Shown: one piece after another, positions 1 to 64,000 of the stretch | How the letters are laid out: each line of letters starts with the position of its first letter | How positions within the stretch are numbered: position 1 is the stretch's first letter | DNA from: Candidatus Marinacidobacterium sp. | GTDB lineage: Bacteria > Acidobacteriota > Vicinamibacteria > Marinacidobacterales > Marinacidobacteraceae | Assembly: GCA_965204755.1 (NCBI GenBank) | Contig: OZ242011.1 | Location: forward strand, 384,001-448,000 | DNA length: 64,000 nucleotides | Direction of reading: 5' to 3' | Program-made: the position numbers and the translations under genes | The notes under the pieces: generated by a model | The model's input: the letters and a program-made list of their open reading frames with translations, nothing else | Database searches by the model: none | What the model was told of the DNA's origin: nothing

Positions 1-484
1 GGGGCTCCTTGGCGAAGCGGTAGAGCAGGTCGCCCTTGACGCCGCCGCCGAACTCGTAGTTCGGGGTCATCTCGATGCAGTCGGTCGGACAGGGGAAGAC
101 GCAGAGTTGGCAGTAGCAGCAGAGCGACATGTCGATGTCGAACTGCACCACGGTCTGCTTGATCGCCGTTCCGTCGGCGGCGAAGATCGGCGGCGACTCC
201 CGCGAACGCTTCTCGTTCTCGATGTGGATGCAGTCCACCGGACAGGCCCGCTCGCACTGCTTGCAGCCGATGCAGTCCTCGATCTTCACATGGAGCCGCA
301 TCCGGGTGCGGTCCATGAGTTCGTCCTTGGGTATGTCGAGCGGGGAGCGCCAGCGCTCGCCCGGCAGTTCGTCGGCGGTGTACTGCTGGGTCACCGCCGG
401 CCGGAACAGGTGGCGGAAGGTGATCACCATCCCGGCGGCGACGGTGCTCACCGTCTCCCAGATGTCGAGGAAATATCTCTTCAC
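1..484 (-). CDS. nuoI: NADH-quinone oxidoreductase subunit I (runs off the left edge of the window)
   Basis: Minus-strand frame from GTG at 484 ([12 protein letters not shown]...) carries two 4Fe-4S motifs, [12 protein letters not shown] and [12 protein letters not shown]. It directly follows nuoH. Confidence 0.9.
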
Positions 485-498
485 GAACCGACTCCTCT

Positions 499-1659
499 TC
501 AGACGGCGCTGCGGAAGCCGGAGATGACGGCCACCGCCACGAGCAGGAAGAACGAAATGGGAATCACATACTTCCAGCAGACGGTCATCAACTGGTCCAC
601 GCGGAGCCGCGGCAGCGTCCAGCGAAGCCACATCTGCACGACGACCAGGCCGAACCCCTTGAGGAACAGGATCAGCGGGTTCGCCCCGAACGGCCCGACC
701 CACCCGCCGAGGAACAACAGCGCCGCCAGCATGGAGACCAGCAGCATGTTCCCGTATTCGGCCAGGAAGAAGAACGCGAACCGCATCCCGGTGTACTCGG
801 TGTGGAAACCGGCGACCAGTTCCGACTCCGCTTCCGGGATGTCGAACGGCGTCCGGTTCGTCTCGGCGAGCCCGCAGATGAAGAACAGGACGAAGGCGAT
901 CAGGTTCAGCGGGAACAGTCGGAAGATGAGCCAGTCCCCGACGCCGAGCAGCCCGCCCTGCTGGGCGGCCACGATCTCCGGCAGGCTCAGCGTGCCGACC
1001 TGCGCCACCACGACGAGCACCAGGATCGCCGTCGGGATCTCGTAACTCACCATCTGCGCCGCGGCGCGCATCCCGCCGTAGAGCGCGTACTTGTTGTTCG
1101 AGCCCCAGCCGGCCATGAGCACCGAGAGCGCCCCGAGCGAAGTGATGGCGATGAAGTAGAGGACGCCGATGTTCAGGTTGGAGACCGCGAGCACCGTCCC
1201 GTCCTCCCGGACTCCCCAGGGGACGATGGCGAACGCGGCGAACGCGCTCGCCACCGCGAGCGCCGGCGCGGTCCGGAACAGCACCCGGTCCGCGTCCTTC
1301 GGGACGATGTCCTCCTTGAAGAGCAACTTGATCCCGTCCGCGAAACTCTGGAGCAGACCGTGCCACCCGACGCGCATCGGCCCCAGGCGGTCCTGCACAT
1401 GGGCCGCCACCTTGCGTTCGAGCCAGATCGCGTAGATCGGGTTCAGCGCCAGGACGCCGATGAAGCCGGCGGTCCCGAGCGCCACCGTGATGAGTTTCTG
1501 GAGGCCGGGCGGCGCGAAGTCCCCGATGAGTTCGCCCACGGTCGTCGCGAGCAGCGGCAACGCGGCCATGAGCGCCAGCACGCCGACCGCCAGCGCGATC
1601 GGGATCGCCGAGAGCGGCCCCATGAGCCGCATCTCGATCTGGCGGAACCGGGTGATCAC
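499..1659 (-). CDS. nuoH: NADH-quinone oxidoreductase subunit H
   Basis: Motifs [50 protein letters not shown] and [11 protein letters not shown]. The GTG start overlaps the nuoD stop (GTGA). Confidence 0.95.
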
Positions 1660-2873
1660 CGGTCGATCTCCCCGAGCACGATGTCCAGACTGCCGATGAT
1701 GGCGATGACATCCGCGATCATCTCGCCGCGGGTGATTTCGTGGAACAGGCCCATGGCCACGAAGCAGGGCGACCGCCCCTTGACCCGGTAGGGAATCGGC
1801 TTCTTGGGTTCGGCGATCACATAGAAGCCGAGTTCGCCCCGGGGCGCTTCCGCCCGGAAGTACGCCTCGCCGCCGGCCGGGCGGATGAACTTGGGCACCT
1901 TCTCGTGGACATTCCCCTCGGCCGGCAACCGCTCCAATACCTGGCGCGCGATCTTCACGCTCTCGTACATCTCGCGGACCCGCACCCAGTAGCGGTCCCA
2001 GCAGGAGCCGATCGGGCCGTGCTCGCCGGAAGCGGCGATCACCTCGAAGTCGTAGTTCTCGTAACCGAGATAGGGATCGTCCCGGCGCAGGTCCCAGGAA
2101 ATCCCGGAACCGCGCAGGTTCGGCCCGGAGAGCGCGTAGTCGCGCGCCATCTCCGGCGTGATGACGCCGACATCGGCGGTTCGCCGGATGAAGATCTTGT
2201 TGCCGGTCAGCAGCCGGTCCACTTCGTCGAGCACCGGGACGAACTCGTCGAGGAACCGGCTGCAGCGGTCGGTCCAGCCCTCCGGCAGGTCGTGGGAGAC
2301 GCCCCCCACCCAGTTGTAGTTGTAGAGGAGCCGGGCGCCGCAGAGCCACTCGAACAGGTCGAGGATGCGCTCCCGCTGCTGGAAACAGAGCAGGAAGGGA
2401 GTGAAGGCGCCGATGTCCATCCCGTAGGTGCCCATCGCCAGCAGGTGGCTGGCGATCCGCTGCATCTCGCCGGTCAGCACGCGGATGGCGGCCACGCGCT
2501 CCCCCACTTCGATGCCGAGCAACTTCTCCACGGTCATGGCGTAGGTCATGCTGTTCGCCATCGAACCGACATAGTCCATGCGGTCGGTGAACGGGATGAC
2601 GCCCTGCCAATCGATGTTCTCCGCGTGCTTTTCGAAGTTGCGGTGGAGGTAGCCGATGTGGGGCCGGGCGTCGCGGATGATTTCGCCGTCGGTCTTGAGT
2701 TCCACCCGGAGGACGCCGTGCGTCGAAGGGTGCTGCGGCCCCATGTTGAGGATCATCTCGTCCTCTTCGAGATCCTCCGGGGAAAAGGCGTAAGAGTTGT
2801 CCGGCGGCAGGTCCTCGTCGTAGAGGGTGACGATCGGCGCGCCGTCGAATCCCCGGGTTCCGGTTTCGGCCAT
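1656..2873 (-). CDS. nuoD: NADH-quinone oxidoreductase subunit D
   Basis: Motifs [32 protein letters not shown] and C-terminal DIVLGEIDR. Confidence 0.97.
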
Positions 2874-2934
2874 GGTCAGTAGTGAACGGGGCCCGGTCGA
2901 AGGGTGCAGGCGAACGGCGTCCGGCGGGAATCGG

Positions 2935-3486
2935 TCAGTCGAAGGGGCCGACGCCGCTCATTTCGCCGCTCTCGGCGCGCTCGGTCATCTGCTGTCCGGG
3001 CCGGACCGGGATCTTGTGCCAGGTCTCGGGCCATTCCCAGTCCCGCAGCAGCGGATGCCCCGGCCAGTCGTTCGGCAGGAGGATGCGGCGGTGGTCGCTG
3101 TGCCCGTCGAAGCGGACGCCGAACAGGTCGAAGACCTCGCGTTCGTGCCAGTTCGCGGCCTTCCAGAACCCTTCCAGCGTGGGCAGGCGCCCGCCCTCCC
3201 GGGGGACGCGCGTCTTGAGCGCGATCCAGTGCTTCTTCGTCAGCGAGAACAGGTGGTAAACGACTTCGATCGCCGGCGGCTCGCCGCCCGGCCAATCCAC
3301 CCCGGAGACGCAGTGCAGCGTGTCGAAGTCGAGGTCGGGCTCGCCCTTGAGGAACGCCGCCGCCGCCGACAGGCGTTCCGCCGGGATCCGGATCCAGGGA
3401 TCCAAGGCCTCCGCGTCGGATTCGAAGGCGCCTTCTCCGAGTCCCAGCCCGGCGGCGAGCCGGTCGATGACTTCGGCGCCGGTCAA
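2935..3486 (-). CDS. nuoC: NADH-quinone oxidoreductase subunit C
   Basis: Motif [39 protein letters not shown]. The TTG start overlaps the nuoB stop. Confidence 0.93.
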
Positions 3487-4046
3487 CCGACCGCTCCTCC
3501 GGCGAGGGCCGGCGCCGCCGCGGCGGCGGGGGCGGTCCGGCCCGGACGCACCCGGCCCGGACGCGGATCCTCGAGCAGCGACTTCTCCCGGATGAGGTCC
3601 TGGAGGACCATGATCCCGTAGAGCAGCGCCTCCGGCCGAGGCGGGCAGCCCGGGACATACACATCCACCGGGATGATCTGGTCCACGCCCTTCACCACAT
3701 GGTATCCGTGCTGCCAGTAGGGCCCGCCGTTGTTGGCGCAACTCCCCATCGAGATCACATACTTGGGCTCCGGCATCTGGTCGAAGAGCCGCTTGATGCG
3801 GATCGCCATCTTGTGGGTGACGGTGCCGGCCACGATCATCAGGTCGGACTGGCGCGGGCTCGCGCGCGGGATCAACCCCAGGCGGTCCCAGTCGAAGCGG
3901 CTCGCCCCGGTGGCCATCATCTCGATGGCGCAGCAGGCGAGCCCGAAGGTCATCGGCCAGAGCGCGGAGAGCCGCGCCCAGTTGATGACGCTGCTGACCG
4001 TGGTCAGCGCGACCTGGTTGCGTCCGAGCGCGGGGATCAGGTCCAA
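3483..4046 (-). CDS. nuoB: NADH-quinone oxidoreductase subunit B
   Basis: Motifs [32 protein letters not shown] and [11 protein letters not shown]. Confidence 0.97.
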
Positions 4047-4095
4047 AGCGCCGACTCCGCCCGCTTCCCGCTCTCGGCCGCTCGCCCGGTCGCGG

Positions 4096-4605
4096 TCAGC
4101 CGGCCGCTCCGGGAACCGGGGACTGCGCCGCCGGCGCCTCGGCCGTCGCGACAGGCGCGGCCGGCGCGACAGGCGCGGCCGGCGCGACAGCGGGCGCGGC
4201 CGGCGCGGCGGAGGCCCGCGTCTCCTTCAACCGGCGCCGCTCCTCGCCCCGGACCCACTCCAGGTCGCCCTTCACCCAGACATCGGCCAAGCCGAGCACC
4301 AGCATCCCCAGGAACAGCAGCCCGGCGACGAGAGCGCCGAGCCCCAGATCGAGGTAGGCCAGCGCCCAGGGGAGGAGCATGACCGCCTCCACATCGAAGA
4401 TCAGGAAGACCAGGGCGAACACATAGAAGCGGATGTTGAACCGGACGCCCCACGGGTTGCCCACCGGGTTCTCGCCGCATTCGTAGGGGCGCGACTTGGC
4501 GGCCAGCGGCAGCGACGGGCGGACCAGCGAGGAGACGAGCAGGGTCACGCTCACGAACAGGACGCCGGCCCCGATCGCGAACAGCGGCCCCAAGTACTCG
4601 CCCAT
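4096..4605 (-). CDS. nuoA: NADH-quinone oxidoreductase subunit A with Ala/Pro-rich C-terminal tail
   Basis: Motifs [23 protein letters not shown] and KGDLEW; three hydrophobic segments. Confidence 0.95.
4147..4208. repeat. 18-bp tandem repeat (cgcgacaggcgcggccgg, about 3 copies) in the nuoA 3' tail
   Basis: Read directly; encodes (PAAPVA)n. Confidence 0.8.
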
Positions 4606-4757
4606 GGTGAAAGTCTCGTTGCGCCCCGCCGGAGACGGCGTCGGAAACGCCCTCGGAGCGGGCAGAATTCTACCCGCCGAGCCGTCGGCGGGTAAAGACC
4701 CGGCCGCCCTTCCCGGGATCGGCCCGACGCCGAGCAGAGCACCCCCGAGACCCGGAA

Positions 4758-5504
4758 TTGGAACGCCCGCCGCACCGGTCGAAGGCCGACCCGGGCCTCT
4801 CCGTGGTGATTCCGACCCTGGACGCCGAGGCCACGGTCGCCGAAGCCATCGGTTCGGCCCCGGCCGGGGCCGAGGTGGTCGTCGTGGACGGCGGGAGCGC
4901 CGACGCCACGGTCGAGACCGCGGCCCGGGCGCTGGAGGCCTCCTCCCCCGGGCCCCCGCAGGTGCTGGTCACCGCCCCCGGACGGGCGGCGCAGTTGAAC
5001 CGGGGCGCGGCCGCCGCGCGCGGGCGGACCCTCCTGTTCCTCCACGCCGACTGCGTCCTGCCGCCGCGCGCCGGGGCGGAGATCCGCCGGATCCTGAAGG
5101 CGTCGGAAGTCGTCGGCGGCTGGTTCCCGCAGGCGCCCCCGGAGGACACGCCGCTCTTCCGGGTGGCGGCGGCCGGGGCGAACCGGAGGGCGGCGGCCCT
5201 CTCCCTGCCCTACGGCGACCAGGCGATGTTCGTCCGCCGGACCGCGTTCGAGCGCGTGGGCGGGTTCCCGACGGCGCCGATCATGGAGGACGCCGGGCTC
5301 GCCCGGAGGCTCCGCCCGCTCGGCCGCCTCCGTCCGGCTTCGTCCCGCGTGCGGATCGGCGGCGGGCACTGGCGGCGGCTGGGCGTGCCGCTCACCGCGG
5401 CGCTCGACCTGGCCACCCTGGCGGCCTGGCTCCTCGGCGCCCCCCCGGAGCGGATCGCCCCGATCTACGGTCGGCTGCACGGCGGCCGCCGGCGCCGGGG
5501 TTAG
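4758..5504 (+). CDS. Family 2 glycosyltransferase (TIGR04283-like)
   Basis: Motifs SVVIPTL, VVDGGSAD, GRAAQLNRGA, FLHAD, LPYGDQAMF and IMED. Confidence 0.85.
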   Translation: MERPPHRSKADPGLSVVIPTLDAEATVAEAIGSAPAGAEVVVVDGGSADATVETAARALEASSPGPPQVLVTAPGRAAQLNRGAAAARGRTLLFLHADCVLPPRAGAEIRRILKASEVVGGWFPQAPPEDTPLFRVAAAGANRRAAALSLPYGDQAMFVRRTAFERVGGFPTAPIMEDAGLARRLRPLGRLRPASSRVRIGGGHWRRLGVPLTAALDLATLAAWLLGAPPERIAPIYGRLHGGRRRRG

Positions 5505-5725
5505 CAGCCCGTGGAAAAAGCGCCCCGCCGTCCACTCCTCGACGCGAGGGCGCCGAGTCCCCGTTCGGTTTCGCGGCGGGGCGCTCTTCCCACGAGCCGG
5601 CGGCGCGAATCGCTGCGCGATTCCCCCCGCCATCTATCGCGGGGAGGGGGCCACCCCCTCCCCGCACCCCTCCCCGGTCGGCGCTTCGCGCCGACGAGGG
5701 CTTCCCGGACTTTCTCCACGGGCTG
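5505..5725. mobile_element. MITE-like element of about 220 bp with 16-bp terminal inverted repeats and internal hairpins
   Basis: cagcccgtggaaaaag (5505-5520) matches the reverse complement of ctttctccacgggctg (5710-5725) at 15/16 positions. Internal hairpins lie at 5639-5665 and 5678-5694. No transposase is encoded. Confidence 0.7.
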
Positions 5726-5761
5726 TCAGGCCGCCGGCGGCGGCCGCGTCCCCGCGGGGGG

Positions 5762-8041
5762 TCAGCCCTGAAGGGGCAGGAGGGGCCTGGGCCCGCCGAC
5801 CTGCTGGGACTCGACGACGGCGATCGCGGCCACATTCACGATCTCCTCCACTTCGGCGCCGCGCTGCAGGACATGCACCGGCCGGCGGAGCCCGGTGACG
5901 ATCGGCCCGATGGCCTGCGCGCCGCCCAGCCGCTGCAACAACTTGTAGGCCACATTGCCGGCTTCGAGGCTGGGGAAGACCAGCACATTCGCCGAGCCGC
6001 CGAGCCGGGAGAACGGGAAGTTCCGGGTGAGCAGGTCGCCCACCACCGCGGTGTCCGCCTGCATCTCCCCGTCCACCACCAGCGACGGCGCCCGCTCGCG
6101 GACGATTTCCACCGCCCGCCGGACCTTCCGGGAGCGCTCGTGGGGGGCGCTCCCGAAGTTGGAGAAGGAGAGCATCGCCACCCGGGGCTCCACATCGAAC
6201 CGCCGGGCCACCCCCGCCGCCTGGATCGCGATGTCCGCGAGATCCTCCGGCCCGGGATCGATGTTCACGGTGGCGTCGGCGAAGAACTTGATGTCCGAGT
6301 CGAACACCATCAGGTACACGCCGGCCACCCGGCGGACGCCGCCCCGCATCCGGACGATCTGGAGCGCCGGGCGGATCGTGTCCGGGTAGTTGCGGGTGAG
6401 GCCCGACACCATGGTGTCGGCGTCGCCGATATTCACCATCATCGCCCCGAACACATTGGGGTCCTTGAGCAGTTCGCGCGCTTTCCCCGGCCCCACGCCC
6501 CGCCGCTGGCGCAGTTCGGAGAGCGCCCGGGCATAGGACTCGGCGCGGTCGGACTCCGCCGGATCCACCACTACCGCCCCGGAGATCTCCACCCCCAGCG
6601 ACTCGCACTGTTCCCGGATGACTTCCGGACGGCCGAGCAGCACCGGGGAGGCGATCTTCTCGTCGAGCAGGCGCTGCGAAGCGCGCAGGATCCGCGGCTC
6701 CTCCCCCTCCGGGAAGACCACGGAGCGCGAGGCCTGCCGGGCGCGCCCGATCACCTGCCGCATGACCCCCCGGCCGAGGCCGAGCCGGGCTTCGAGCCGG
6801 TCGCGGTAGGTGTCGAGGTCGAGCGCGAGCCGGGCGACGCCGCTCTCCATCGCGGCGCGGGCGACCGCCGGCGCTTCCCACAGGAGGACCCGGGAGTCGA
6901 ACGGGGACGGGATCAGGTACTCCGGGCCGAACCGCATCCGCTCCCGCCCGTGCGCCCGCATCACCGAGTCCGGCACATCCTCCTCGGCGAGCGCCGCCAG
7001 CGCCCGGGCCGCCGCGAGTTTCATCCCCATGTCGATCGTGCGGGCGCGCACATCGAGCGCTCCCCGGAAGATGAAGGGGAAGCCCAGGACATTGTTGACC
7101 TGGTTCGGGTAGTCGGAACGCCCGGTCGCCATGAACACATCGCCGCGGGCGTCCATGGCGTCCTCCCAGGAGATCTCCGGGTCCGGGTTCGCCATCGCCA
7201 GCACCAGCGGCCGGTCGTTCATGGAGCGCACCATGTCCTTCGACACGGCGTCCTTGACCGAGAGGCCCATGAAGACATCGGCGCCGCGCAGGGCGTCCCC
7301 GAGGGTCCGCATCGGCGTGTCCAGCGCGTAGCGCTCCTTGAACTCGTTCATCCCCCGGTCCCGGCCGGCGTGGATGACGCCTCGGGAGTCGCACATCACG
7401 ATGTGCTCGCGCCGGACGCCCAGACTCTCCGCCAACTCGGCGCAGGCGATGCCGGCGGCCCCGGCGCCGTTGATGACCAGCCGCGTTTCCGCCGGGTCCT
7501 TGTCCGTCAACTGCAGCCAGTTCAGGACGGCCGCCCCGGAGATGATCGCGGTGCCGTGCTGGTCGTCGTGGAAGACCGGGATCTCCATCTCTTCCCGCAG
7601 TTTCGACTCGATGTGGAAGCAGTCCGGCGCCTTGATGTCCTCGAGGTTGATCCCGCCGAAGGTCGGCTCCAGCGCCTTCACCACCCGCACCACTTCTTCG
7701 GGGTCGGTGACGCCCAACTCGATGTCGAACACATCGATGTCGGCGAACCGCTTGAACAGCACGCCCTTCCCTTCCATGACCGGCTTGGCGGCCAGCGGGC
7801 CGATGTTCCCGAGCCCGAGGACGGCGGTCCCGTTCGAGACGACCGCCACCAGGTTGCCCTTGGCGGTGTAGTCGAACACCGCGTCGGCGCGCTCTTCGAT
7901 CTCCCGGCAGGGCTCGGCGACGCCGGGGCTGTACGCGAGCGACAGGTCGCGCTGCGTCTGGGTGGGCTTGGTGGGCCGGACCTCGAGTTTCCCGGGCCGG
8001 CCGGTCTTGTGGTAGTCCAGCGCGTCCTGTCGTCGTATCAA
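5762..8041 (-). CDS. maeB: NADP-dependent malic enzyme with C-terminal phosphotransacetylase-like domain
   Basis: Motifs [30 protein letters not shown] and [12 protein letters not shown]; PTA domain motif DGEMQAD...GNVAYKLLQ. Probable TTG start at 8041. Confidence 0.95.
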
Positions 8042-8169
8042 GTGGGCGCCCCTCCGTAACAAAGGCTCACCGGCGGCCCCGGCATCCGGGACCGCCGCGC
8101 CGCCGCCGGGCGGCGAAACGGCGCGGAGTCTAGAACGGTCGCCGCCGCCCGCCGCCGCGCCGGCGGTTC

Positions 8170-10311
8170 TCAGTCCGGCGGCGGGGTCGTCGGTTCCCGG
8201 CCCCCGGCGCCGGCGTCGTGGGCGCGGAACCAGGCCAGGATGCGCTCGGAGACATCCATCAGGAACTTGGGTTCGCGCGGGCCGTGGGGGGTGCGCGGAT
8301 AGACGACCATCTCGGTGGGAACGCCCCGGCGGTCGAGCGCCCGGTAGAACTCCTGCCCCTGGGTGAAGGGCACGCGCAGGTCCTCCGCGCCGTGGATCAC
8401 CTGCGTCGGGGTGCTCACTTCCGCGATCCGGTAGATGGCCGAGTGGCCCTCGTACATCTCGTAGTCCTCCCAGTAGTCCCCGCCCATGTGCGCCGCCAGG
8501 TAGTCCTGGATGTCCGTGGTGGTGACCATGCTGATGAGGTTGGGAAGCCCGGCGCCCATGCTGGCGGCGCGGAACCGGTCGGTGCGGGTCACCGCGAAGG
8601 AGGTGATGTAGCCGCCGTAACTCCAGCCCATCAGGAACAGGCGGTCCGGATCGGCGACCCCCTCCTCGACCAGCAGGTCCACCCCGGCCAGCAGGTCGTC
8701 GAGGTCGGAGAACCCCCACTCCATGACATTCGCGTAGCGGAACTCCTTGCCGTAGCCGGTCGAGCCCCGGGGGTTCGGGCGCAGCACGGCGAACCCCTCC
8801 CGGGCGAAGTACTGCAGCATGTAGATCGAAGGACCGCCGGTGAAGGTCTCCGAGTACACCCCGGCGGGGCCGCCGTGGACATTCAGGATCAGCGGCGCCG
8901 GAGTCCCCGGCCGGTGGTCCGCGGGAAGCGTCAGCAGCCCCTCGATCTCCATGCCGTCGGGGGCGCTCCAGGTCCGGAGGGAGGTCGGCCCCATCGCCGG
9001 CCGGGGGACGCCGGAGTGGAGGTTGGTCAGCCGCCGCATCTCGAAGGACGGGGCCGGCCCCCCGCCGGGCGCCAGGTCGGCGGCGAAGACCTCCCAGGGC
9101 GTGTCCGGCGTCTCGTGGACGAACGCCAGCACATCGGCTTCCCGCGCGACCGCAGCGGAGCGGAAGACCCCGCCGCCCGGAGTGAGGGCGACCGGCGCGC
9201 CCCCGTCCGCCGGCAGCGCGAACACCCGCCGCGAAGTGCGGTGCGCTTCGGCGACATACACGAACGACCCGTCCCGGGCCCACCCGAGGATCCCCGGGCT
9301 GCGGTCGGGCGTCTCCGCCAGGCGGGTCCGTTCGCCGCCCATCACCGGCATCCGGTACACATCGCCGAGCCCCACCGGCTCGACCCGGTCCCCGGTCGAG
9401 CGGAAGGCCACGGTGGCGCCGTCGGGCGAGACCACCGGGGAACTCTCCACGCCCCCGCCGCCGTGGAGCAGCCGGACCGCGCCGTCCGCGAGGTGGACCA
9501 CCGAAAGGTCGCCGGCCCGCCGGTTGGTGTTGATCCGGGGATCGGGCTGGTGGGCGAAGACGATCCGGTCGCTGCTCGACCAGTCGAACCCGGTCACCGA
9601 GAAGTCGCCCTGGGTCAGCCGCCGGTCCTCGCCCTCGGGATCCGGGGTGTCCGTTACGAGGGCGGCATACAGGTGGACATATCGGAAGTTCCGGTCCACG
9701 AGTTCCACATCCCGCTTCTCCTTCTTCCGCTTCTTCTCTTCCTCGGTTTCCGGGTCGGTCATCGTGTAGGCGACGCTCCGGCCGTCCGGCGAGAACCGGA
9801 ACGAGCGGACGCCGGCCTCGGCGCGGGTCAGCGGGCGGGCCTCGCCGCCGGCCAGCGGGAGCAGCCAGACCTGCTGCTCGCCGTCCCCCCGCGAGGAGAG
9901 GAAGCCGAGGTAGGCGCCGTCGGGAGAGAACGCCGGCGCCGAAGCGGACTCGGTGTCCCGGGTGTAGGTGACGGTCTCGCCCCCGGCGGTGGGGACGACC
10001 CGGATGCGGCTCCGGTACTCGGACTGCTCGCCCTCCATGAGCGGCTCGGTCACCACGAACGCGGCGAGCGAACCGTCGGGGGAAACGGCGGTCCCGGAGA
10101 CCCGGTGGTAGCGCATGGAAAGCGCCGGGGTCCAGCGGTCGGGCTCCTCCGCTTCCGGGCTGCCGGCCGCGGGCGCGCCCGCGCCGAGGACGGCAGGGAC
10201 GGCAAGGACGGCAGGGACGGCAAGGACGGCAGGGACGGCGAACGCGCCGAGCCGGCGGTTCCTGCCCGCGCGCGGCGCGGGGGTCCGGGTTCCCCTCGAG
10301 GTGTCGCTCAT
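8170..10311 (-). CDS. Secreted S9 family peptidase (acylaminoacyl-/dipeptidyl-peptidase-like)
   Basis: Signal peptide, PD40-like repeats (SPDG), VHGGP, nucleophile motif [15 protein letters not shown]. Confidence 0.92.
10187..10240. repeat. 9-bp tandem repeat x6 (rggacggca) in the signal peptide of the S9 peptidase
   Basis: Read directly; encodes (AVPAVL)3. Confidence 0.85.
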
Positions 10312-10509
10312 GGTGCTCTCCCTCCTCCTTCTTCGTCGTGTTCGAGGCGGGCGATGGTCGGACGCGCCCCGGGATTCCGCCGCACCCGGCGGGCGGGCGC
10401 CCGCGCGGGGGTCGGCGGCCGCCGCATCCTACCGGAGCGCGCCCCGGCCTTCCCGACGGGCGGCGACGCCGCGGGAACCGCGGGGCGCTCCATCTCGTAG
10501 GCTTCCCGC

Positions 10510-11739
10510 GTGGACCTCGCAGCGCCGGAACTCACGGCGCCGGAAGCGGCCCGGCCCCCGGCGCGAAGCGGCAAGCCCGCCGCCCGGACCGGGCTCGACC
10601 GGCTGCCGGAAACCGGCGAACTGCTGAGCGGGCTGCGGGTCGGCCTCATCGCCAACCCGTCGTCGGTGGACGCCTCGTTCCGGCACGCCCGGGAAGTGGT
10701 CGCCGGACTCCCCGGCGCGCGGCTCGCGGCGCTGTTCGCCCCGGAGCACGGTTTCGACGCGGTGGAGCAGGACCTGGTCGAGATCGAGGACGCCGGGGCC
10801 GCGCTGCCGATCCGCAGCCTCTACGGCCCGACCCGGAAACCCACCGCGGCGATGCTGGAGGGGCTCGACGCCCTGGTCTTCGACATCCAGGACATCGGGT
10901 CGCGCTACTACACCTACATCTGGACGATGGCCCACGCGCTCGAAGCCTGCGCCGAACACGGCCGGCGCCTCGTCGTGCTCGACCGCCCCAATCCCATCGG
11001 CGGCGCCGTGGAAGGCAACTCGATCGAGGACGACCACCGCTCCTTCGTCGGGCTCTACCCCCTGCCCAACCGCCACGGCCTGACCGCCGGGGAGATCGCC
11101 GGCCACCTGAACCGGGAACACGGGATCGGCGCGGACCTGGTGGTGGTCGGCGTGAGCGGCTGGCGCCGGAGCGAGTGGCTGGACGACGCCGGACTGCCGT
11201 TCGTCCCCCCCTCCCCGAACATGCCCACCCTGGACACCGCGGCGGTCTATCCCGGCGCATGCCTGCTCGAAGGGACGATCCTCTCGGAGGGCCGGGGAAC
11301 GACCCGTCCGTTCGAGACCTGCGGCGCCCCCTGGGTCTCCGGGGAGCGGCTCGCGGCGGCGCTCGCCGAAGAGGGGCTGCCCGGCGTGGCCTTCCGCCCG
11401 GCGCGGTTCCGTCCGACCTTCCAGAAGTTCGCCGGCGTCGAGTGCGGCGGCGTGATGCAGCACCTCACCGACCGCGCCGAGTACCGCCCCTGGCGCGCGG
11501 GGATCGCGCTCCTCTCCGCCTTCCGCCGGCTGTGGCCGGCCGAGTTCGCCTGGCGGCAGCCGCCCTACGAGTACGAGACGGAGCGGCTCCCCATCGACAT
11601 CCTGGCCGGGAGCCCGCGGCTGCGGGAGGGGATCGAAGCCGGTGTTCCCGCCGCGGAACTCGCCGACGCCCTCGAGGCCGAACGCGCGGCCAACCACCGG
11701 GACGAAGCCGCCCGCCGCCGCGCCCGCCTCTACGACTGA
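10510..11739 (+). CDS. namZ: Exo-beta-N-acetylmuramidase NamZ family (DUF1343)
   Basis: Motifs [39 protein letters not shown] and [17 protein letters not shown] lies 6 nt before the GTG start. Confidence 0.9.
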
Positions 11740-11794
11740 GCCGGGACCGGCCGGCGACCCCTTCCCCCGGCGCGGGGACGCCCCGAACCCGGCG

Positions 11795-13024: not shown

Positions 13025-13050
13025 GGCGCATTCTCCCTCCCGCCTCCGGC

Positions 13051-13779: not shown

Positions 13780-13818
13780 GGGGGGCGGTATCGTAGGAGC
13801 CGCCCCGCCGGGAACTCC

Positions 13819-16166: not shown

Positions 16167-16256
16167 CCCGGACTTCGTCCGGCCCTCTCCGTTCCCGCCC
16201 GCCCGCCCCCGAAGGGATGACCGTTTTCGTCTCGCTGCCCGGCTACGGTTCGTCCC

Positions 16257-17939: not shown

Positions 17940-17942
17940 CCA

Positions 17943-52600: not shown

Positions 52601-52741
52601 GTCTTCAACCTGCTTGATGCCGCCAACCACAACCAGTTCACTTATAGTGGCGCGAATCGGACTTGGGTCCCGGCCTTTATGGAGTTGCGAAGCCGGCAGA
52701 ACGCGCGCACGATGCTCGTTCGAGGCACTCTCCGGTTCTAA
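49616..52741 (+). CDS. TonB-dependent receptor (carboxypeptidase-regulatory-like N-domain, Oar-type)
   Basis: RBS AAGGAG, signal peptide, GTVRDDSGAVLPGATVT, GGPIMRDKAWFF, YLQDSW and terminal LRF. Confidence 0.9.
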   Translation: MRKPAFALLLAALLAAPTLAFGQAGDSSLRGTVRDDSGAVLPGATVTATSPALIQPASTVTDSQGAYRLVNLPAGTYTLEASLSGFNTFRQEGILLRASSNFGVEPVLSIGGVEETITVTAETPMLEVSRPGNILTIEGDLQRDLPIQARGNWSDFLELTPGVNARPFDDGSGRMVYFGHATEHFSHVIQLEGMAAAGYTDSQVTYVGMNADMMEDMSVKTGGAEAKDPMGTGLIINVITRSGGNDLSGSAAYDHQEFDWGTGDDDGLTGFFGDNEVPPGFNPFSAEKSSLAGLEQYGSGVYDPETQEGRAGSTGTPTAHLVRQADFSFGGPIMRDKAWFFASYRYADLSARISRGGTDVERLTALSGIALGGLGAAPTYSEFLNTTTSHQPYLKISAQLNSSHELNAYYQRDTTENTSNREYDLASRLTVQTGGNLYGAKLTSVFGANTTGQFTLSYNDKASQVPLDLQPQAGDLPLYLEIHSGYSVNSSGTISGGGRLAAAGTPNGSDRPARLVLLRGDITRYVDDLAGSHEFAVGVYAAPWNRYPSTTTYSLMNGWSTEHHAMVDANGNITEDLGAAAATRWFYRTRTGDESGPIATLQTIDATDSDIGVYLQDSWKPADRLTLNIGVRADFVRRSDGIRNFDRMNTVAIGPRAGFAYQVTADGRNILRGSYGRVHEQMNGRDAVTRVHGGATAGSYTEYDHDGDGLPDHSVYNPPVASLPNDVLFDPDIGQPFVDEFIGGLRRQFGSQISVDAAVIHRRYQDNYALLDQNGYYPSQAPAPVPLGEFQFGAVDIEQGSIRQQTNNSWSQLRYTAIEITTARRTERMSATLNFSRQWQSFGGDWNPHDPARYIHPEKFASTKALYMPRGNNEHNTLRASTATSYAPTWRQWSLRGGMSYVMPYDFTVAVSYTGNAGPWTGPLLQRLPSDSPDVAQYGPGSANNGKTNPLSTRYRVVGPDRGELQAQAPTVHTVGLSLGKILDFGPAQLELSAQVFNLLDAANHNQFTYSGANRTWVPAFMELRSRQNARTMLVRGTLRF

Positions 52742-52789
52742 CGCCAACGCTTAGGGCTGCCTACTGAACTCGCAGCCATACCACGACAT

Positions 52790-52821
52790 TGTGGCGCTTG
52801 CCCTACGGGGTGAGCGCCACA
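52790..52821 (+). terminator. Stem-loop with cTACGg tetraloop downstream of the TonB-dependent receptor
   Basis: tgtggcgcttgccc-TACG-gggtgagcgccaca, with G-U pairs allowed; no clear U-tract. Confidence 0.55.
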
Positions 52822-52864
52822 CTCATGTACGCTGGAGGTGGGGAGGAATGCCGCGACCCCCGAT

Positions 52865-53113
52865 CTTGACTTCGACGGTTTGGCCTTGTAAGTAGTTAAC
52901 GGGTTGGGAACTTGGTTTCGTAGGCACACTACAACCGGGCGGAGTTCGGGGGTGGAACCGGCGTGGCCCGCCGGGGCAGTCGGAGGCCCACCGGCCGGTA
53001 GATCCGCTCCGCCTCCGGGGTAGCCTTCGAGGGCAGGAAGAACCGCTCGTTCGTGCCCCGGTCGCAGCCGTGGGAGACCTCCACACGGAGCAGTTCCCGC
53101 AGCAGCCGCTCCT
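52865..53113 (-). mobile_element. 3' end of an IS1634-like element (copy 1), truncated by IS21
   Basis: Transposase tail ERLLRELL...LPSKATPEAERIYR...L*, then TGTAGTG...GTCGAAGTCAAG terminus. Near-duplicate of 54414-54705. Confidence 0.65.
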
Positions 53114-53543
53114 TTTGAGCAGGCAAAAAAATGTCCCCACTTTTCGGCAACCAAAATGCCCCACCTGCCGGCCCGCGGGAGAGAAGCTTGTCTTGGCGCG
53201 GCATTACCTGAACTGGGGGCTGAGCCGTCGGTTCGGGGGTAAGCCGGCGGACGCTGGGGCGGTGGCTGGCGTCGGGGATCTGGTGGCGGAGCGGCAGGAG
53301 GCGGTTCGGTATCGGGATCGGCTCCCGGGTCCGACGGTTCTGGACGGGTATCGGGAGGAGTGGGGCCAAGTGCTGGGGGACGAGGTGATGGCGGCGGCGA
53401 TGCTGGATCGGCTGCTCCACCACGCCCACATCGTGAACATCCGGGGGAACAGCTACCGGCTCCGGCACCGGGAGGACCTCGTCAAGGTGTTCCGTCGGCG
53501 AACGGGAGAGGAGCCGGCGTCAGCCGGAACGGGCAACGCATGA
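53114..53543 (+). mobile_element. Internally deleted IS21-family element (IstA N-terminus fused in frame to IstB C-terminus)
   Basis: Subterminal repeats aaaatgtccccac/aaaatgccccac; IstA-like LVLARHYL..GLS; IstB C-terminal EWGQVLGDEVMAAAMLDRLLHHAHIVNIRGNSYRLR. Confidence 0.8.
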
Positions 53544-53598
53544 GGTCGGCCCGGCCCCTCCGCTTCACCCGGTTCCGGCGCCGGAGCACCGCCCCTCA

Positions 53599-53661
53599 GG
53601 TCGGTCGGGCCGCTGGCTCCCTCGGCCCTCCGGGCCTCCGTCCCAAGCGGCCCGACCGACC
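53599..53661. terminator. 16-bp perfect stem hairpin between the IS21 remnant and the peptide gene
   Basis: ggtcggtcgggccgct (53599-53614) pairs with agcggcccgaccgacc (53646-53661). Confidence 0.6.
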
Positions 53662-53673
53662 CGTCGGAGCCCT

Positions 53674-53958
53674 CTAGCACTCGTCGCAGCTGGGGCCGCC
53701 GCAGGTGTCGCAGGTGTCGGGGCAGGTGTGCCTCTCGTCGTCCGTCGGACCCGGGCAGCCGCCGCAGGTGTACCCGCAGGTCGGGCAGCAGGTCCGCGGG
53801 CAGGTCGGGTCGCAGGTGTTGTGGCCTCCGGCGGCATCCCCCATCTGGTCGTCGGTGAGGCTGACCAGGGGACGCTTCTTCAGGCGGAGCACCTGCTTCT
53901 TCTCGGTCTTCTCCTCGGCCGGCGGCCGCGGACCCGTCTCAGTGGCGGACTTTTTCAT
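53674..53958 (-). CDS. Putative RiPP (lanthipeptide-like) precursor: 45-aa double-Gly leader + 49-aa Thr-Cys-repeat core
   Basis: MKKSATETGPRPPAEEKTEKKQVLRLKKRPLVSLTDDQMGDAAGG|HNTCDPTCPRTCCPTCGYTCGGCPGPTDDERHTCPDTCDTCGGPSCDEC. RBS GGAGA and an upstream sigma70-like promoter. Confidence 0.8.
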   Translation of the reverse strand: MKKSATETGPRPPAEEKTEKKQVLRLKKRPLVSLTDDQMGDAAGGHNTCDPTCPRTCCPTCGYTCGGCPGPTDDERHTCPDTCDTCGGPSCDEC

Positions 53959-54034
53959 CGTCGTCTTCTCCCATGGAAGGAAACAGTGGACCAATCGGCC
54001 GGCTCTCGCTCGACCGCCCGGTGAACTGTTGGCC

Positions 54035-54063
54035 AGTATCCGGCTCGAGACGGGAGATGTCAA
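54035..54063 (-). promoter_or_regulatory. Sigma70-type promoter for the precursor peptide gene
   Basis: Minus strand reads TTGACA (54063-54058), 17-nt spacer, GATACT (54040-54035), about 75 nt upstream of ATG 53958. Confidence 0.7.
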
Positions 54064-54179
54064 ACGCGTAGTCGGGGACGAGACGGCAGGAGCCCGGAAC
54101 CTTCGAAACGGGGGTTGCTCCCCGCTCCCGGAGCGTCAGAAGGCCCGACCGCATTACCGTTCGGAACACACGCCTGCTT

Positions 54180-54413
54180 CAACAGCCCACGGAAGCACGC
54201 CAGGACGCCTCGGCCGGGGATCGCGGCAAGGCGAGTCGGTATCGGGTGTGGCGACCGGCGCCGGAGCGAGGGAGCGCGCCGAGGGTCACCAGCCCTGCGA
54301 GGTCGCAGGTCGCGGTGGCTGGAGTGGCGGCGGCGGTGCGGCGGTAGTTCCCGGCGCTGAGGCGGCCCTCGAGACCCTCCGGCCTCCGACCGGAACAGGC
54401 GGCGCAGCGCCTT
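54180..54413 (-). pseudogene. 3' (HTH) fragment of a second Fic gene, frameshifted
   Basis: Close DNA similarity to 60520-60735 (KALRRLF...GLSAGNYRR...GRHTRY). It ends exactly at the IS terminus at 54414. Confidence 0.8.
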
Positions 54414-54745
54414 CTTGACTTCGACGGTTTGGCTTTGTAAGTGGTTGACAGTTAGGGAGTTGGTTTCGTAGGCACACTACAACCGGGCGGAGTCCGGCGG
54501 GGAGTGTCGGGGGTCAGGCGACTTCGCGCGAGTCGCCTCGGGGGTGGAACCGGCGTAGCCCGCCGGGGCAGTCGGAGGCCCACCAGCCGGTAGATCCGCT
54601 CCGCCTCCGGGGTGGCCTTCGAGGGCAGGAAGAACCACTCGTTCGTGCCCCGGTCGCAGCCGTGGGAGGCCTCCACCCAGAGCAGTTCCCGCAGCAGCCG
54701 CTCCTCGCGCAGCGGCGCCTCCGGGTAGGCCCGGGCGTAGACGCC
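54414..54745 (-). mobile_element. 3' end of an IS1634-like element (copy 2)
   Basis: YARAYPEAPLREERLLRELL...PEAERIYRLVGLRLPRR plus the same terminus as copy 1, with about 40 bp extra relative to copy 1. Confidence 0.65.
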
Positions 54746-58137: not shown

Positions 58138-58139
58138 AG

Positions 58140-60500: not shown

Positions 60501-61631
60501 TCACCAGCCCGCAGGCGCACGCGAGGACGCCTCGTCCAACGGTGGCGGCAAGGCGAGCAGGTATCGGGTGTGGCGACCGGCGCCGGAGCGGTGGAGCGCG
60601 CCGAGGGTCACCAGCCCCGCGAGGTCGCGGGTCGCGGTGGCCGGGGTGGCGCCGGTGATGCGGCGGTAGTTCCCGGCGCTGAGGCCGCCCTCGAAGCCCT
60701 CCGGTTCCGCGCGGAACAGGCGGCGCAGCGCCTTCGCCTCGCGGGGGCTCAATCGGTCGCCCAGCCGTCGGAACATCCGCGCCTGTTCCACCGAGCAGGC
60801 GACGCGGCGTTCGCTCCAGCGCTGGGCGGCCACCGCGGTCTCGGCGAACCACCGCAGCCACCGGGTGATGTCGAGGGAGCGGTTCGCCCGTTCGAGGACC
60901 TGGTAGTAGGCGCCGCGGCGGCAGGCGATCTCGCGGGAGAGCGCGATCAGGCTCGGGCAGCCGAGGGCGCGCGCCAGCGCCTTTTCCGCCACGGAGCGGG
61001 CGATGCGTCCGTTGCCGTCCTCGAAGGGATGGACGAAGACGAAGTCGAGGTGGGCCACGCCGGCCCAGGTGAGCGGGGGGAGCGCCTCCGCCGCGGACCT
61101 CTCGTACCAGCGGACGAATCGCGCCATTTCGGCCGGAACCCGCGCGGAAGGCGGCGCTTCGTAGTGAACTGCGGCGGCCGGGCCGGAGACGACCTGCATC
61201 GGTTGGCCGCCTCGCCGGAAGGCCCCGATCTGGGATAGATCGGAACGGCCACGCAAGAGACGCCGATGCCAGTCGCACAACCCGGAGAGCGCCAGCGGCC
61301 GGTCGAAGTCGGAGTAGAGGGCGACCATCAGGTCCGCCGCCCCGGTCTCCTCCGGAGTCGGACGCCGCTGCTTGCCCTTCCAGCCGAAGTGCTCCCGGAT
61401 GGAGGACTGCAACGAGTCGCGATCGAGGATCTCCCCCTCGATGGCCGAGGTCTCGACCGCCTCGTCGGTCAGGAACTCCACCCGGAGTTCCCGGCGTTCC
61501 TCCTCATCGAGATGCCACGCCGCTCCCAGCGACCGTTCCGCCGCGAGGCGGAAATCGGCCTCGAGCGGCGCGATCTCCGCTTCGTCCCAAGTGAACCGGG
61601 GCCACTCCGGCCGCTGCCGGATCCAGCGCAT
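60501..61631 (-). CDS. Fic family protein (DUF4172 N-terminus, Fic domain, C-terminal HTH)
   Basis: MRWIRQRPEWPRF, TSAIEGE, canonical HPFEDGNGRIAR and ATATRDL. Confidence 0.93.
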   Translation of the reverse strand: MRWIRQRPEWPRFTWDEAEIAPLEADFRLAAERSLGAAWHLDEEERRELRVEFLTDEAVETSAIEGEILDRDSLQSSIREHFGWKGKQRRPTPEETGAADLMVALYSDFDRPLALSGLCDWHRRLLRGRSDLSQIGAFRRGGQPMQVVSGPAAAVHYEAPPSARVPAEMARFVRWYERSAAEALPPLTWAGVAHLDFVFVHPFEDGNGRIARSVAEKALARALGCPSLIALSREIACRRGAYYQVLERANRSLDITRWLRWFAETAVAAQRWSERRVACSVEQARMFRRLGDRLSPREAKALRRLFRAEPEGFEGGLSAGNYRRITGATPATATRDLAGLVTLGALHRSGAGRHTRYLLALPPPLDEASSRAPAGW

Positions 61632-62774: not shown

Positions 62775-62877
62775 GGGGTTGCCTCCCGGTCGGTATTGTC
62801 TCTTGGACGCGGGCCGGCCGAACGGCGCCGGGCGCAACCGACCGGCGGAGCGGGCGCCCGGCGCCGGGAGGAAGGCG

Positions 62878-63738
62878 TCAGTTCCGGCGCAGCCCGATCT
62901 CGAGCGACGCCAGCAGGAAGACCGGCCGGACGCTCGTCTCGAGCGCCCCGGTGACGGTCAGGCTGCTCCCCGGGGGAGCGAGCCGGGGGTAGTCGAACTC
63001 GAACGCGGTGGTGAGGGGCTCGGCAGTCAGGACGACATCCAGGCGAGGGCGGAGGAAGAGGGGGCCGGCCTGCACCGAGAGGGCCACCGAGCCGCCGTAG
63101 GCGAGCCCGTCCCGGTCGGCGCGGAAGGTCACCCGGTCGAAGGGAATCCCGTCCGCCACCGCCGGCAGGGCCACCTGCTCCCAGTCCTGGGCCAGCAGCC
63201 CCTTCGTGAACGAGTCGGTGACCCGCAGGTAGCCGGCGCCGGCGCCGACCGACAGCCGGGCCCCGCGGGCGAGCGCGATGCGATAGACGACCTGGCCGAA
63301 GTAGAGGTCCGCCCGGGAGCGCGGCAGTTCGGCCGGGCCGCCCGCCGGGCGGAACGCGGCGCCCTGAGCGGCGTAGGCGCCGATGTCGGCGAGCAGGTGC
63401 GACGGGGTGAGGTCGCGGCTGTCGATCCGGCGGTAGGCGGCTTCGATCCCCCACTGCCCCCATCCGAGGCGCAGGCCGCCGCCGTAGGCGAAGTCCGACG
63501 AGAGCCGCGAGCCGATGACCGTCGCGACGGGGCCGGCGGTCGTGTCGAGGCGGAGCGAGTCCTCGGCGGAGGCGCTGAGCGCGTTCCAGCCCGGCGTGCC
63601 GAAGATCTCGATGTAGAGACCGGTGTCGGGGCGCGGAGGCTGCGCGGCCGCGGCGGCGGGAACGGCGGCGAGCGCCAGGGCCGCCAGCGCGCCGGCGATC
63701 CGGCGCCGGCCCGGTCGAAACCCGACGGCTTTCTTCAT
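62878..63738 (-). CDS. Uncharacterised probable outer-membrane beta-barrel (paralogue 3 of 3)
   Basis: Signal peptide; motifs PGWNALSASAED, GQWGIEAAYR, RPRLDV and LEIGLRRN. Confidence 0.7.
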   Translation of the reverse strand: MKKAVGFRPGRRRIAGALAALALAAVPAAAAAQPPRPDTGLYIEIFGTPGWNALSASAEDSLRLDTTAGPVATVIGSRLSSDFAYGGGLRLGWGQWGIEAAYRRIDSRDLTPSHLLADIGAYAAQGAAFRPAGGPAELPRSRADLYFGQVVYRIALARGARLSVGAGAGYLRVTDSFTKGLLAQDWEQVALPAVADGIPFDRVTFRADRDGLAYGGSVALSVQAGPLFLRPRLDVVLTAEPLTTAFEFDYPRLAPPGSSLTVTGALETSVRPVFLLASLEIGLRRN

Positions 63739-64000
63739 GGTGATCGGCCCTCCCGGCGCCTCTCGGAGGGCCGGAGACTAGCAACCGGCGAGTCTTCCCG
63801 CCGCCGGTCGGCCGAGGGCGGACGCCCCCGGGGCGCGCCGCGGGGGGCTCGGCGGGCGCCCGGACGGGGCCGGAATCGGCGGCGCGAGGGGCGGGTCTCG
63901 TCTCGGCCGGCGCCGACTACACTCCGAAACCCCTTCCCGTTCCGGGCCGGCCGGCCCGGCGACCCTTCGACCGGAGGCGCCTCATGTCCCGATTCCCCGC

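Follow-up and report, generated by a model that had tools for sequence, protein, structure and literature searches.

The DNA analyzed here, a stretch of 64,000 bases (the window) from the sponge-associated bacterium Candidatus Marinacidobacterium sp., corresponds to C1:384001–448000 of a one-contig genome of 3,975,858 bases (G000), and is nearly devoid of two four-base palindromes, ACGT and AGCT. The depletion of both words is real and not due to chance, and it extends across the chromosome. We hold with moderate confidence that natural selection, acting over a long time on the two words as such, has removed them, as restriction-site avoidance taken almost to completion. The selecting agent is presumably a nuclease; we infer that the best candidates for its source lie outside the window, in two operons (M3 and M6) that combine a C5-cytosine methyltransferase (C5-methylase) with genes resembling the PDC-M33 defense family.

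Word counts in the window and genome

No copy of ACGT occurs in the window (71.1% guanine plus cytosine, G+C), where base composition predicts 168.7 and a maximal-order Markov model 109.3; AGCT is present four times, with corresponding predictions of 168.7 and 114.2. By our own arithmetic, the Poisson probability of zero copies at an expectation above 100 is below 1e-40. An earlier note on this DNA, made by eye, had reported no ACGT and four AGCT (48098, 53185, 53451, 53688) where about 150 of each word were predicted; the exact count returned the identical positions, and the computed expectations are approximately 110–170 of each. The next scarcest word in the window is CTAG (seven copies; observed/expected ratio, O/E, 0.13), while the words that the note had described as abundant (CCGG, GGCC, GATC, TCGA, GTAC, and ACCT/AGGT) are indeed so, with counts of 1428, 752, 411, 475, 112, and 224/243.

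Across the genome, ACGT occurs 265 times, compared with a Markov expectation of 7,146 (O/E 0.037), and AGCT 332 times, compared with 7,446 (O/E 0.045); genome-wide expectations for each word range from approximately 7,100 to 10,200, and CTAG is again the next lowest 4-mer (O/E 0.13). The excess of C-to-T neighbor words that the note predicted is present genome-wide (Markov O/E of 1.65 for ATGT, 1.68 for ACAT, 1.52 for AGTT, and 1.60 for AACT). Neighbor words that are not C-to-T products are also in excess, namely AGCA and TGCT (2.03) and ACGA and TCGT (1.55–1.58). ACGT and AGCT are short palindromes depleted beyond composition, Markov, and codon-aware expectations alike. Further 6-mers are depleted in G000 as well (Markov O/E of 0.14 for CTATAG, 0.19 for GTAGAC/GTCTAC, 0.20 for GTCGAC, and 0.38 for GTATAC); these may mark additional restriction specificities.

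Sequence from other sources supports the authenticity of this pattern. Part of positions 1–10000 of the window is present in 19 public sequencing runs from seven studies, with labels including sponge and marine metagenomes; no RNA run was found among the runs listed as containing it. Contigs from run X1 show 0 differences from window positions 1–20000, and contigs from runs X3, X7, and X11, which belong to three other studies, are approximately 99% identical to the same interval. None of 40 listed variants (of approximately 420) creates an ACGT or AGCT, whereas approximately 3% of random single changes would do so; A>G plus T>C changes number 44–57 per run, which falls short of the restoration of all sites expected in 20 kb, as these exceed 100. 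The codon pattern described below also appears in three further, separately assembled genomes. As independent metagenome contigs carry the same sequence, the depletion is not an assembly artefact. Within this part of the window, positions 5337–6003 form a GC-rich intergenic stretch with inverted repeats, a contig depth approximately 20-fold higher than in the surrounding sequence in all four runs, and many joints, and are probably a multi-copy repeat; no Rfam family matched anywhere in the window, this stretch included.

Codon usage and dipeptide content

Expected sites per codon frame were computed from real amino acid sequences and genome-wide codon usage, with genes taken as stop-to-stop open reading frames (ORFs) picked by third-position G+C (2,157 genes, 79% of the genome). 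Coding counts, observed/expected, were as follows:

ACGT: total 137/5,977; codon|N frame 33/1,859; xNN|NNx frame 70/3,706; xxN|NNN frame 34/411
AGCT: total 137/7,290; codon|N frame 35/1,691; xNN|NNx frame 62/5,195; xxN|NNN frame 40/404

These counts correspond to a codon-model O/E of 0.023 for ACGT and 0.019 for AGCT, with all three frames depleted (0.012–0.099). Coding DNA retains approximately 2% of its expected sites, which bears out the earlier proposal that the genome has been recoded almost to completion. Outside the called genes, 128 ACGT and 192 AGCT remain, compared with approximately 2,204 expected (O/E 0.058 and 0.087).

The middle frame (NAC|GTN, NAG|CTN) carries 62% of the expected coding sites for ACGT and 71% for AGCT, and the losses are almost exactly compensated: NAT|GTN reaches 4,410 where 774 were expected, NAA|CTN gains approximately 3,400, and NAG|TTG gains approximately 2,300. 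Genome-wide, Asp before Val is encoded by GAT in 98.6% of 2,144 cases, as compared with 15.7% elsewhere, and Asn, His, and Tyr before Val take the T-ending codon in 97.9–98.7%; Leu following GAG, CAG, or AAG is encoded by TTG in 96.5% of 2,183 cases, as compared with 5.2% elsewhere. By our own arithmetic, the odds of GAT before Val and of TTG after xAG are shifted approximately 400–500 fold. Ser before T is encoded by AGC in 0.5% and by AGT in 21.5% of cases, compared with 23–29% and 1–6% before other bases, and Thr before T shows frequencies of.690 (ACC),.244 (ACT),.059 (ACA), and.007 (ACG). The codon examples that the earlier note had picked out in the window (nuoB, GATGTC at 45960 and 45969, and AGTTAC) were all recovered:

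3483–3953, minus strand: nuoB (Oxidored_q6 gene; Pfam PF01058)
3655–3669, minus strand: recoding example in nuoB; the reverse complement of GTGGATGTGTATGTC, GTG GAT GTG TAT GTC, with rare T-ending Asp and Tyr codons
15009–15014, plus strand: AGT TAC (Ser-Tyr) in gene 13947–16166, AGC before T giving AGT; likewise at 15684 and 46014
45960–45974, plus strand: two Asp-Val pairs, GAT GTC CTC GAT GTC, in frame with ORF 44529–46454 (plus strand; own arithmetic)

The effect reaches protein composition. The O/E of [DNHY]-V dipeptides is 0.53 in G000, and 0.56, 0.69, and 0.43 in three related genomes that are also depleted in ACGT (G001, G005, and G007, respectively), as compared with 0.82 in five non-depleted relatives. 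The missing pairs are spread over E-V, [DNHY]-L, and [DNHY]-I, and are not concentrated in [DNHY]-I or [DNHY]-M.

Selection or deamination

The earlier note had offered two causes, long-resident methyltransferases producing 5-methylcytosine (m5C) or strong selection by matching nucleases. The latter fits best; the C-to-T products from which the former was argued are not evidence for deamination. The middle frame has no synonymous escape except NAT|GTN, NAA|CTN, and NAG|TTG, so that any cause of loss would yield C-to-T products there. This places a limit on a popular inference, in that an excess of C-to-T neighbors is not proof of deamination when the code leaves no other synonymous escape. For Thr in ACG|T, three synonymous escapes exist and ACA is the sole deamination product; the ACA:ACT ratio is 0.24, as is that of TCA:TCT when Ser stands in this context. 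At positions where the code permits alternatives, the C-to-T products are not preferred, and replacements follow ordinary codon preference.

The remaining frame is informative in the same way. Deamination of m5C would be expected to leave sites in place where the C-to-T change is non-synonymous, and this persistence is not observed. xxA|CGT is depleted to 34 of 411 expected (0.08) although the change alters Arg, while G|CGT, A|CGC, and T|CGT stand at 1.00, 0.83, and 2.95; likewise, xxA|GCT is depleted to 40 of 404 (0.10) although the change alters Ala, while A|GCG and C|GCT stand at 1.00 and 1.21. CCWGG serves as an internal control: it has an O/E of 0.94 despite a resident Dcm-like methylase beside an EcoRII-domain nuclease, with a vsr gene nearby, where CCWGG as the specificity of this pair is assumed from the family name. 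That CCWGG is not depleted argues that m5C does not erode sites in general. As all frames and non-coding DNA are depleted, non-synonymous positions included, no product is preferred at free-choice positions, and [DNHY]-V pairs are rarer than in relatives, selection is favored over m5C deamination, and selection against the words themselves is likely the main force.

Distribution among relatives and age of the loss

Comparison of G000 with 40 related genomes used six-base proxies, GACGTC for ACGT (control CTGCAG, the reversed word) and GAGCTC for AGCT (control CTCGAG). Counts of GACGTC/CTGCAG were 45/946 in G000, 72/1491 in G001 (same genus), 80/919 in G005, and 119/549 in G007, with ratios of approximately 1.2–4.7 in most others. 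GAGCTC/CTCGAG was depleted only in G000 (29/2146) and G001 (143/2060); at 0.0135, the G000 ratio is also the lowest among 401 genomes of the phylum, a set that includes three unpublished genomes, and is followed by 0.069, 0.075, and 0.093. Sampled DNA of the depleted relatives gave the following 4-mer counts, observed/expected:

G001, 400 kb sampled: ACGT 124/1020; AGCT 105/1020
G005, 60 kb sampled: ACGT 11/182; AGCT 163/182
G007, 60 kb sampled: ACGT 16/149; AGCT 160/149

Both 4-mers were near normal in sampled DNA of G004, G006, G010, G014, and G015. The codon signature follows the counts: NAT precedes GTN in 398/452 cases in G001, 78/82 in G005, and 45/51 in G007, with other genomes ranging from 19/70 to 49/116. 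Loss of ACGT is patchy, found in three of the seven genera of the family (G000, G001, G005, and G007), while loss of AGCT is confined to the genus of G000 and G001. Two weaker patterns were seen nearby. In G006, GACGTC is low (139, vs. 285 for the control) though ACGT overall is near normal (106/183), which suggests avoidance of the 6-mer rather than the 4-mer; in genus g2 (e.g., G014), AGCT dips mildly, with GAGCTC/CTCGAG at approximately 0.35–0.5 and TTG after xAG in 19/52 cases in G014.

A phylogeny of the C-terminal 716 residues of RpoB (38 rows; G003 gave no match, the unpublished G033 was omitted, and G007 is partial) places G000 and G001 together as sister to the rest of the family, with G007 and G005 as successive sisters of the non-depleted genus g2. 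This topology indicates that the genomes lacking ACGT do not form one clean clade; the trait must have been gained twice or more, or gained and also lost.

The age of the AGCT loss was assessed by aligning 260 kb of G000 to G001 (approximately 75–80% nucleotide identity), which yielded 352 conserved E/Q/K-Leu pairs. Two routes of escape from AGCT are available to such pairs, AA|CT and AG|TT. Both genomes use AA|CT in 187 pairs and AG|TT in 54, with 52 and 37 pairs discordant (odds ratio 5.2, p 2e-10), although alignment at the nucleotide level may somewhat inflate this sharing. Because a switch between routes requires a forbidden or doubly disfavored intermediate, the sharing points to recoding before the split; judged from these alignments, the AGCT loss appears largely to predate the divergence of G000 and G001.

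Residual sites and lower-GC DNA

The sites that remain in G000 are clustered, with 375 of 597 falling in 67 of 796 5-kb bins; mean G+C in these bins is 0.678, compared with 0.725 in site-free bins, and the lower-GC bins rich in residual sites look like recently acquired DNA. Other copies persist in constrained sequence. The single ribosomal RNA (rRNA) operon keeps 6 ACGT and 22 AGCT, the 68 transfer RNA (tRNA) and transfer-messenger RNA genes keep 5 ACGT and 27 AGCT in 6.2 kb, and 70 AGCT belong to an intergenic repeat element, where they lie within the invariant word TTGTGTATAGCT. The retention of these rRNA, tRNA, and motif copies indicates that constrained sequence keeps the words, and that the cell tolerates well over a hundred copies. 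In the window, the four residual AGCT sit in or next to a lower-GC segment:

47001–53000: lower-GC segment, G+C 0.61–0.67 compared with approximately 0.72 in the rest of the window; AGCT 48098 inside
48098–48101: residual AGCT inside a GWxTD/TPR protein gene (46983–49346), in this lower-GC stretch
53185–53691: three residual AGCT (53185, 53451, 53688), just past the right edge of the segment; no family match, ORFs 52929–53468 (minus strand) and 53705–54418 (plus strand)

The same segment contains the only TTAA of the window and several TATA.

The repeated intergenic element is represented by nine homologous copies of approximately 400–500 bp, 65–73% identical to one another, all on G000:C1 outside the window:

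Element starts, G000:C1: 357898, 756035, 1207954, 1659953, 2045503, 2895445, 2970770, 3119128, 3494179

Each element has two arrays in the same orientation, 150–330 bp apart, with 3–6 units of approximately 20–21 bp (some approximately 30 bp). Of the array units, 70 carry the invariant word and 23 more read ...TATAGGT instead. Together the elements account for 21% of the AGCT that remains in the genome, and the genes downstream of them are unrelated; the invariant word was not seen in sampled DNA of the relatives.

Candidate methylase operons and other enzymes

A search of the genome for C5-methylases and Vsr, as the earlier note had advised, recovered six genes of each type. Profile hits comprised six PF00145 (C5), 28 PF01555 (25 over the cut-off), nine PF02384, and one PF02086; the vsr-like genes include five without a stop codon. 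Homologues of the six PF00145 genes carry merely generic names, with HhaI and HaeIII as the PDB relatives. Three of the six lie in the following loci:

M3 operon, genome 1.256–1.264 Mb, minus strand: five genes (C5-methylase, three PDC-M33-like genes, vsr), with a Dam-like methylase at the same locus; candidate for AGCT
M6 operon, genome 1.516–1.522 Mb, plus strand: same build as M3 (C5-methylase, three PDC-M33-like genes, vsr); candidate for ACGT
M1 locus, G000:C1:1048601–1051082: EcoRII-type restriction–modification (R–M) system, a C5-methylase adjoining a nuclease with EcoRII-N and EcoRII-C domains (1.7e-32 and 2.2e-54)

The three adjacent M3 genes match PADLOC PDC-M33A, B, and C (8.2e-93, 2.5e-40, and 9.9e-23), with C corresponding to DUF6339. 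The operon is syntenic in G001, where its proteins are 54–78% identical, and an M3-type methylase (E ≤ 1e-30) occurs only in G000 and G001 among the 41 genomes. A search of a metagenome contig collection with M3 found no close relative, only four loci (three full-length matches at no more than 30% identity and a 36-residue fragment at 57%), while a large protein collection holds many relatives at 63–74% and one at 93%, all generically named. At G000:C1:1256536–1259155, within the M3 locus, a DDE transposase of 560 amino acids lies between an intact vsr (141 amino acids) and a partial vsr with a TGA stop, which looks like an insertion sequence with partial duplication.

Matches of the M6 operon to PDC-M33 are weak (A at 6.1e-6, none for B, and C via DUF6339 at 7.9e-4, below the Pfam cut-off). 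The whole operon recurs in G005 at 44–78% identity, and an M6-type methylase is present only in G000, G005 (78%), and G001 (43%) among the 41 genomes. The target-recognition stretch of M6 (residues 251–325) is 68–84% identical in G005, while homologues from other phyla have median identities of 36–66% in this region and may differ in specificity. By blastn, both operons occupy syntenic sites in G000 and G001. At the M6 site (G000:C1:1516107–1521800, compared with L033 of G001), the 5-kb upstream flank and the vsr are 77% and 79% identical at the nucleotide level; between them, identity drops to 43% for the methylase and 24% for the A protein, a pattern that suggests replacement of a defense cassette next to a vsr that stayed in place.

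Within the family, the M3 and M6 types track the two depletions, except in G007. Their roles as candidates are nonetheless tentative, and we would put them as possible rather than probable.

Methylases common to all ACGT-depleted genomes were also considered. No feature pointing to ACGT was found in a Type I HsdMSR system at 1.159 Mb (78% identical in G005 and G007), an orphan PF01555 gene at 2.357 Mb surrounded by housekeeping genes, a PF01555 gene at 0.491 Mb that adjoins an AAA_21 ATPase and an unknown protein of 255 amino acids, a large PF01555 protein at 2.901 Mb, or the Dam-like gene of the M3 locus. Orthologues of the M1-locus methylase are present in G006, G003, and G012. Two further genes were noted in the window. 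On the plus strand, an ORF of 560 amino acids at 16257–17939, with M_Eco57I_C and weak N6_Mtase matches, lies among housekeeping genes; from its domain matches it is a putative Type IIG/IIL-like methylase gene or remnant. On the minus strand, 60501–61631 is a Fic/DOC family gene with a DUF4172 domain, and another Fic gene neighbors a methylase at 0.492 Mb in the genome.

Proposed explanation and alternatives

Under the proposed restriction-site avoidance, R–M systems cutting both palindromes would have been resident in the lineage, or would have re-entered it repeatedly. Any unprotected copy of either word would be a potential double-strand break, whether through the lag of methylation after replication or through gain or loss of a system; each copy would carry a small fitness cost, and over a long time any mutation destroying a copy would be favored. 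Escape would be mostly synonymous (NAT|GTN, NAA|CTN, NAG|TTG, AGT|T, and ACC or ACT|T) and partly protein-changing, with fewer Asp/Asn/His/Tyr-Val pairs as a result. Copies would survive only where function forbids change, as in rRNA, tRNA, and the repeated intergenic motif, or where lower-GC DNA has been acquired recently. A more specific version, which we regard as speculative and on balance improbable, is that M3 (for AGCT) and M6 (for ACGT) are multi-subunit restriction systems whose self-toxicity forces long-term hosts to erase approximately 98% of targets, even where proteins must change as a result. If true, counting words in genomes would show which sites are targeted by a hitherto uncharacterized defense family of the PDC-M33 type, and similar reasoning might apply to the unexplained disappearance of AGCT from pandoraviruses, discussed below.

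Several observations weigh against this explanation. Searches of G000 found no enzyme, whether nuclease or methylase, with a proven specificity for ACGT or AGCT, and sequence comparison with Pfam, NCBIfam, and PDB gave no match for the A and B proteins of either candidate operon (the B protein falls solely in unnamed clusters in the Atlas). G007 is depleted in ACGT yet no C5-methylase was found in its assembly, which is 86% complete in 410 contigs. G000 and G001 form a single genus, so that anything genus-specific co-occurs with the loss of AGCT. Outside the family the association fails: of 50 loci from other genomes with M6 homologues (47–78%), one shows ACGT loss in its 20-kb surroundings, and this one coincides with G005; three genomes of the phylum with 53–60% M6 homologues have normal GACGTC ratios (1.1–1.8), and two with 60–61% M3 homologues have ordinary GAGCTC ratios (0.46 and 0.48). 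These homologues could be recent arrivals or have other specificities. The EcoRII-type system is resident with no loss of CCWGG, which indicates that residence alone does not force depletion. Islands carrying sites have been acquired, and at least 119 AGCT are tolerated in RNA genes and motif arrays. The gene calls underlying the codon counts are crude, with approximate starts. Finally, if the population is very large, a hypermutable site could impose a mutational load that by itself selects against xxA|CGT; on this account the frame argument counts against the deamination model without disposing of it.

In that model, erosion would be mutational: two resident four-base C5-methylases would produce Am5CGT and AGm5CT, and deamination outpacing repair would convert these to ATGT/ACAT and AGTT/AACT. 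The six C5-methylase genes and the excess of all four product words (1.5–1.7 Markov O/E) are consistent with such erosion, as are the places where G001 keeps a word that G000 has lost, with ACAT or ATGT in G000 at 20 of 39 differing places for ACGT, and AGTT or AACT at 10 of 31 for AGCT. [EQK]-F pairs, the product of CTC to TTC, are also somewhat higher in G000 (0.97) and G001 (0.95) than in relatives (0.68–0.81). Yet the products in excess are the sole synonymous options in the main frame, ACA is not preferred at the free-choice Thr position, and xxA|CGT and xxA|GCT are depleted approximately 10-fold though C-to-T is non-synonymous there. Nor are the lost [DNHY]-V pairs specifically replaced by [DNHY]-I or [DNHY]-M; most of the six vsr-like repair genes, five of them without a stop codon, lie beside methylases; and CCWGG, next to its Dcm/EcoRII-type pair, is intact. 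The observed codon shifts would moreover demand a rate excess of approximately 400–500 fold by our own arithmetic, which would be an extremely strong hypermutation. We consider an origin by mutation alone unlikely.

Selection could also have come from nucleases that are not stably encoded, with mobile four-base systems, or nucleases of phages or neighbors in a dense sponge community, invading repeatedly and site-poor chromosomes surviving better; we consider this rather unlikely as well. It would accommodate the depletion of G007 with no detectable C5-methylase, the lack of any resident system tied to the words outside the family, and the strong divergence of the internal M6 genes between G000 and G001 at a conserved site, a sign of cassette turnover. 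The genome is rich in methylases (six C5, 28 PF01555, and nine PF02384 hits), the runs containing the window are from sponge and marine metagenomes, and sponge microbiomes are reported to be enriched in defense genes (PMC5099237). The non-depleted genera g2, g4, and g6 keep their sites, though, despite apparently similar genome size and methylase content, and a depletion that targets two particular words and has been stable from before the divergence of G000 and G001 onward is better explained by a steady agent than by sporadic ones. Long-read assemblies can miscall methylated motifs, and because the palindromes are identical on both strands, strand tests cannot separate selection on DNA from selection on ACGU and AGCU in RNA, for example by a sequence-specific RNase. 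Both base-calling or assembly error and such RNA-level selection are nevertheless highly improbable, given the X1 contigs identical over 20 kb, the contigs of three other studies at approximately 99% identity with no mass reversion and no site created among the 40 listed variants, the overwhelmingly synonymous recoding that differs by codon frame, its recurrence in four separately assembled genomes, the depletion of DNA outside called genes, and the retention of the words in the most abundant RNAs, rRNA and tRNA.

Comparison with known systems

G000 is among the most extreme cases documented here of a cellular genome reshaped by the avoidance of short words: of approximately 13,000 expected coding sites 274 remain, over 96% of the affected codon pairs use rare codons, and certain amino acid pairs are measurably fewer. 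Word counts of this kind can flag lineages long exposed to a given restriction specificity, mark recently acquired DNA, and point to candidate enzymes.

Loss of m5C sites through mutation has familiar examples in the loss of CpG in vertebrates and in the Dcm-site hot spots of E. coli, which are countered by Vsr. G000 resembles these in having C5-methylases, vsr genes, and frequent transition products of the central C and G, but differs in that its pattern is explained by the genetic code, non-synonymous positions are depleted, free positions show no preference for the product, and the depletion is far more extreme. Among defense systems, the M3 operon resembles PDC-M33 (PADLOC-DB 2.0.0, PDLC04582–04587) in having A, B, and C components adjoining a C5-methylase; unlike the PDC-M33 models, the M3 and M6 operons additionally end in a vsr gene, and M6 matches only weakly. 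No paper in the library searched mentions PDC-M33 or DUF6339.

A search of the same library on avoidance of ACGT or AGCT identified one relevant parallel, a preprint on pandoraviruses (Poirot, Jeudy, Abergel, Claverie; bioRxiv 10.1101/712018). In that work, AGCT is nearly or wholly eliminated from clade-A pandoraviruses and its loss follows phylogeny, ACGT is abundant (5,822 and 6,165 copies), and the authors report having excluded R–M models experimentally, with no responsible enzyme found. The loss of AGCT in G000 is similar in affecting a GC-rich, megabase-sized genome, in following phylogeny, and in the variety of its replacement words. It differs in that pandoraviruses are viruses of amoebae that have kept ACGT, whereas G000 is a bacterium with many R–M genes that has lost ACGT too.

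The closest known phenomenon is restriction-site avoidance itself. G000 shares with it the Type II-style short palindromes, a loss beyond composition and codon usage, lineage specificity, and a methylase-rich genome. Such avoidance has reportedly been described by Gelfand and Koonin in 1997, by Rocha, Danchin and Viari in 2001, and by Rusinov et al.; the term is used, for example, in PMC6286503 and PMC4176335. Unlike the usual cases, two four-base words in G000 stand at approximately 2–4% of expectation across a 4-Mb chromosome, an effect is visible at the level of dipeptides, the searches returned no cognate enzyme, and an EcoRII-type system leaves CCWGG untouched. The phenomenon is of a well-described kind, from which G000 stands apart in the degree of avoidance in a cellular chromosome and in the trace left at the protein level.

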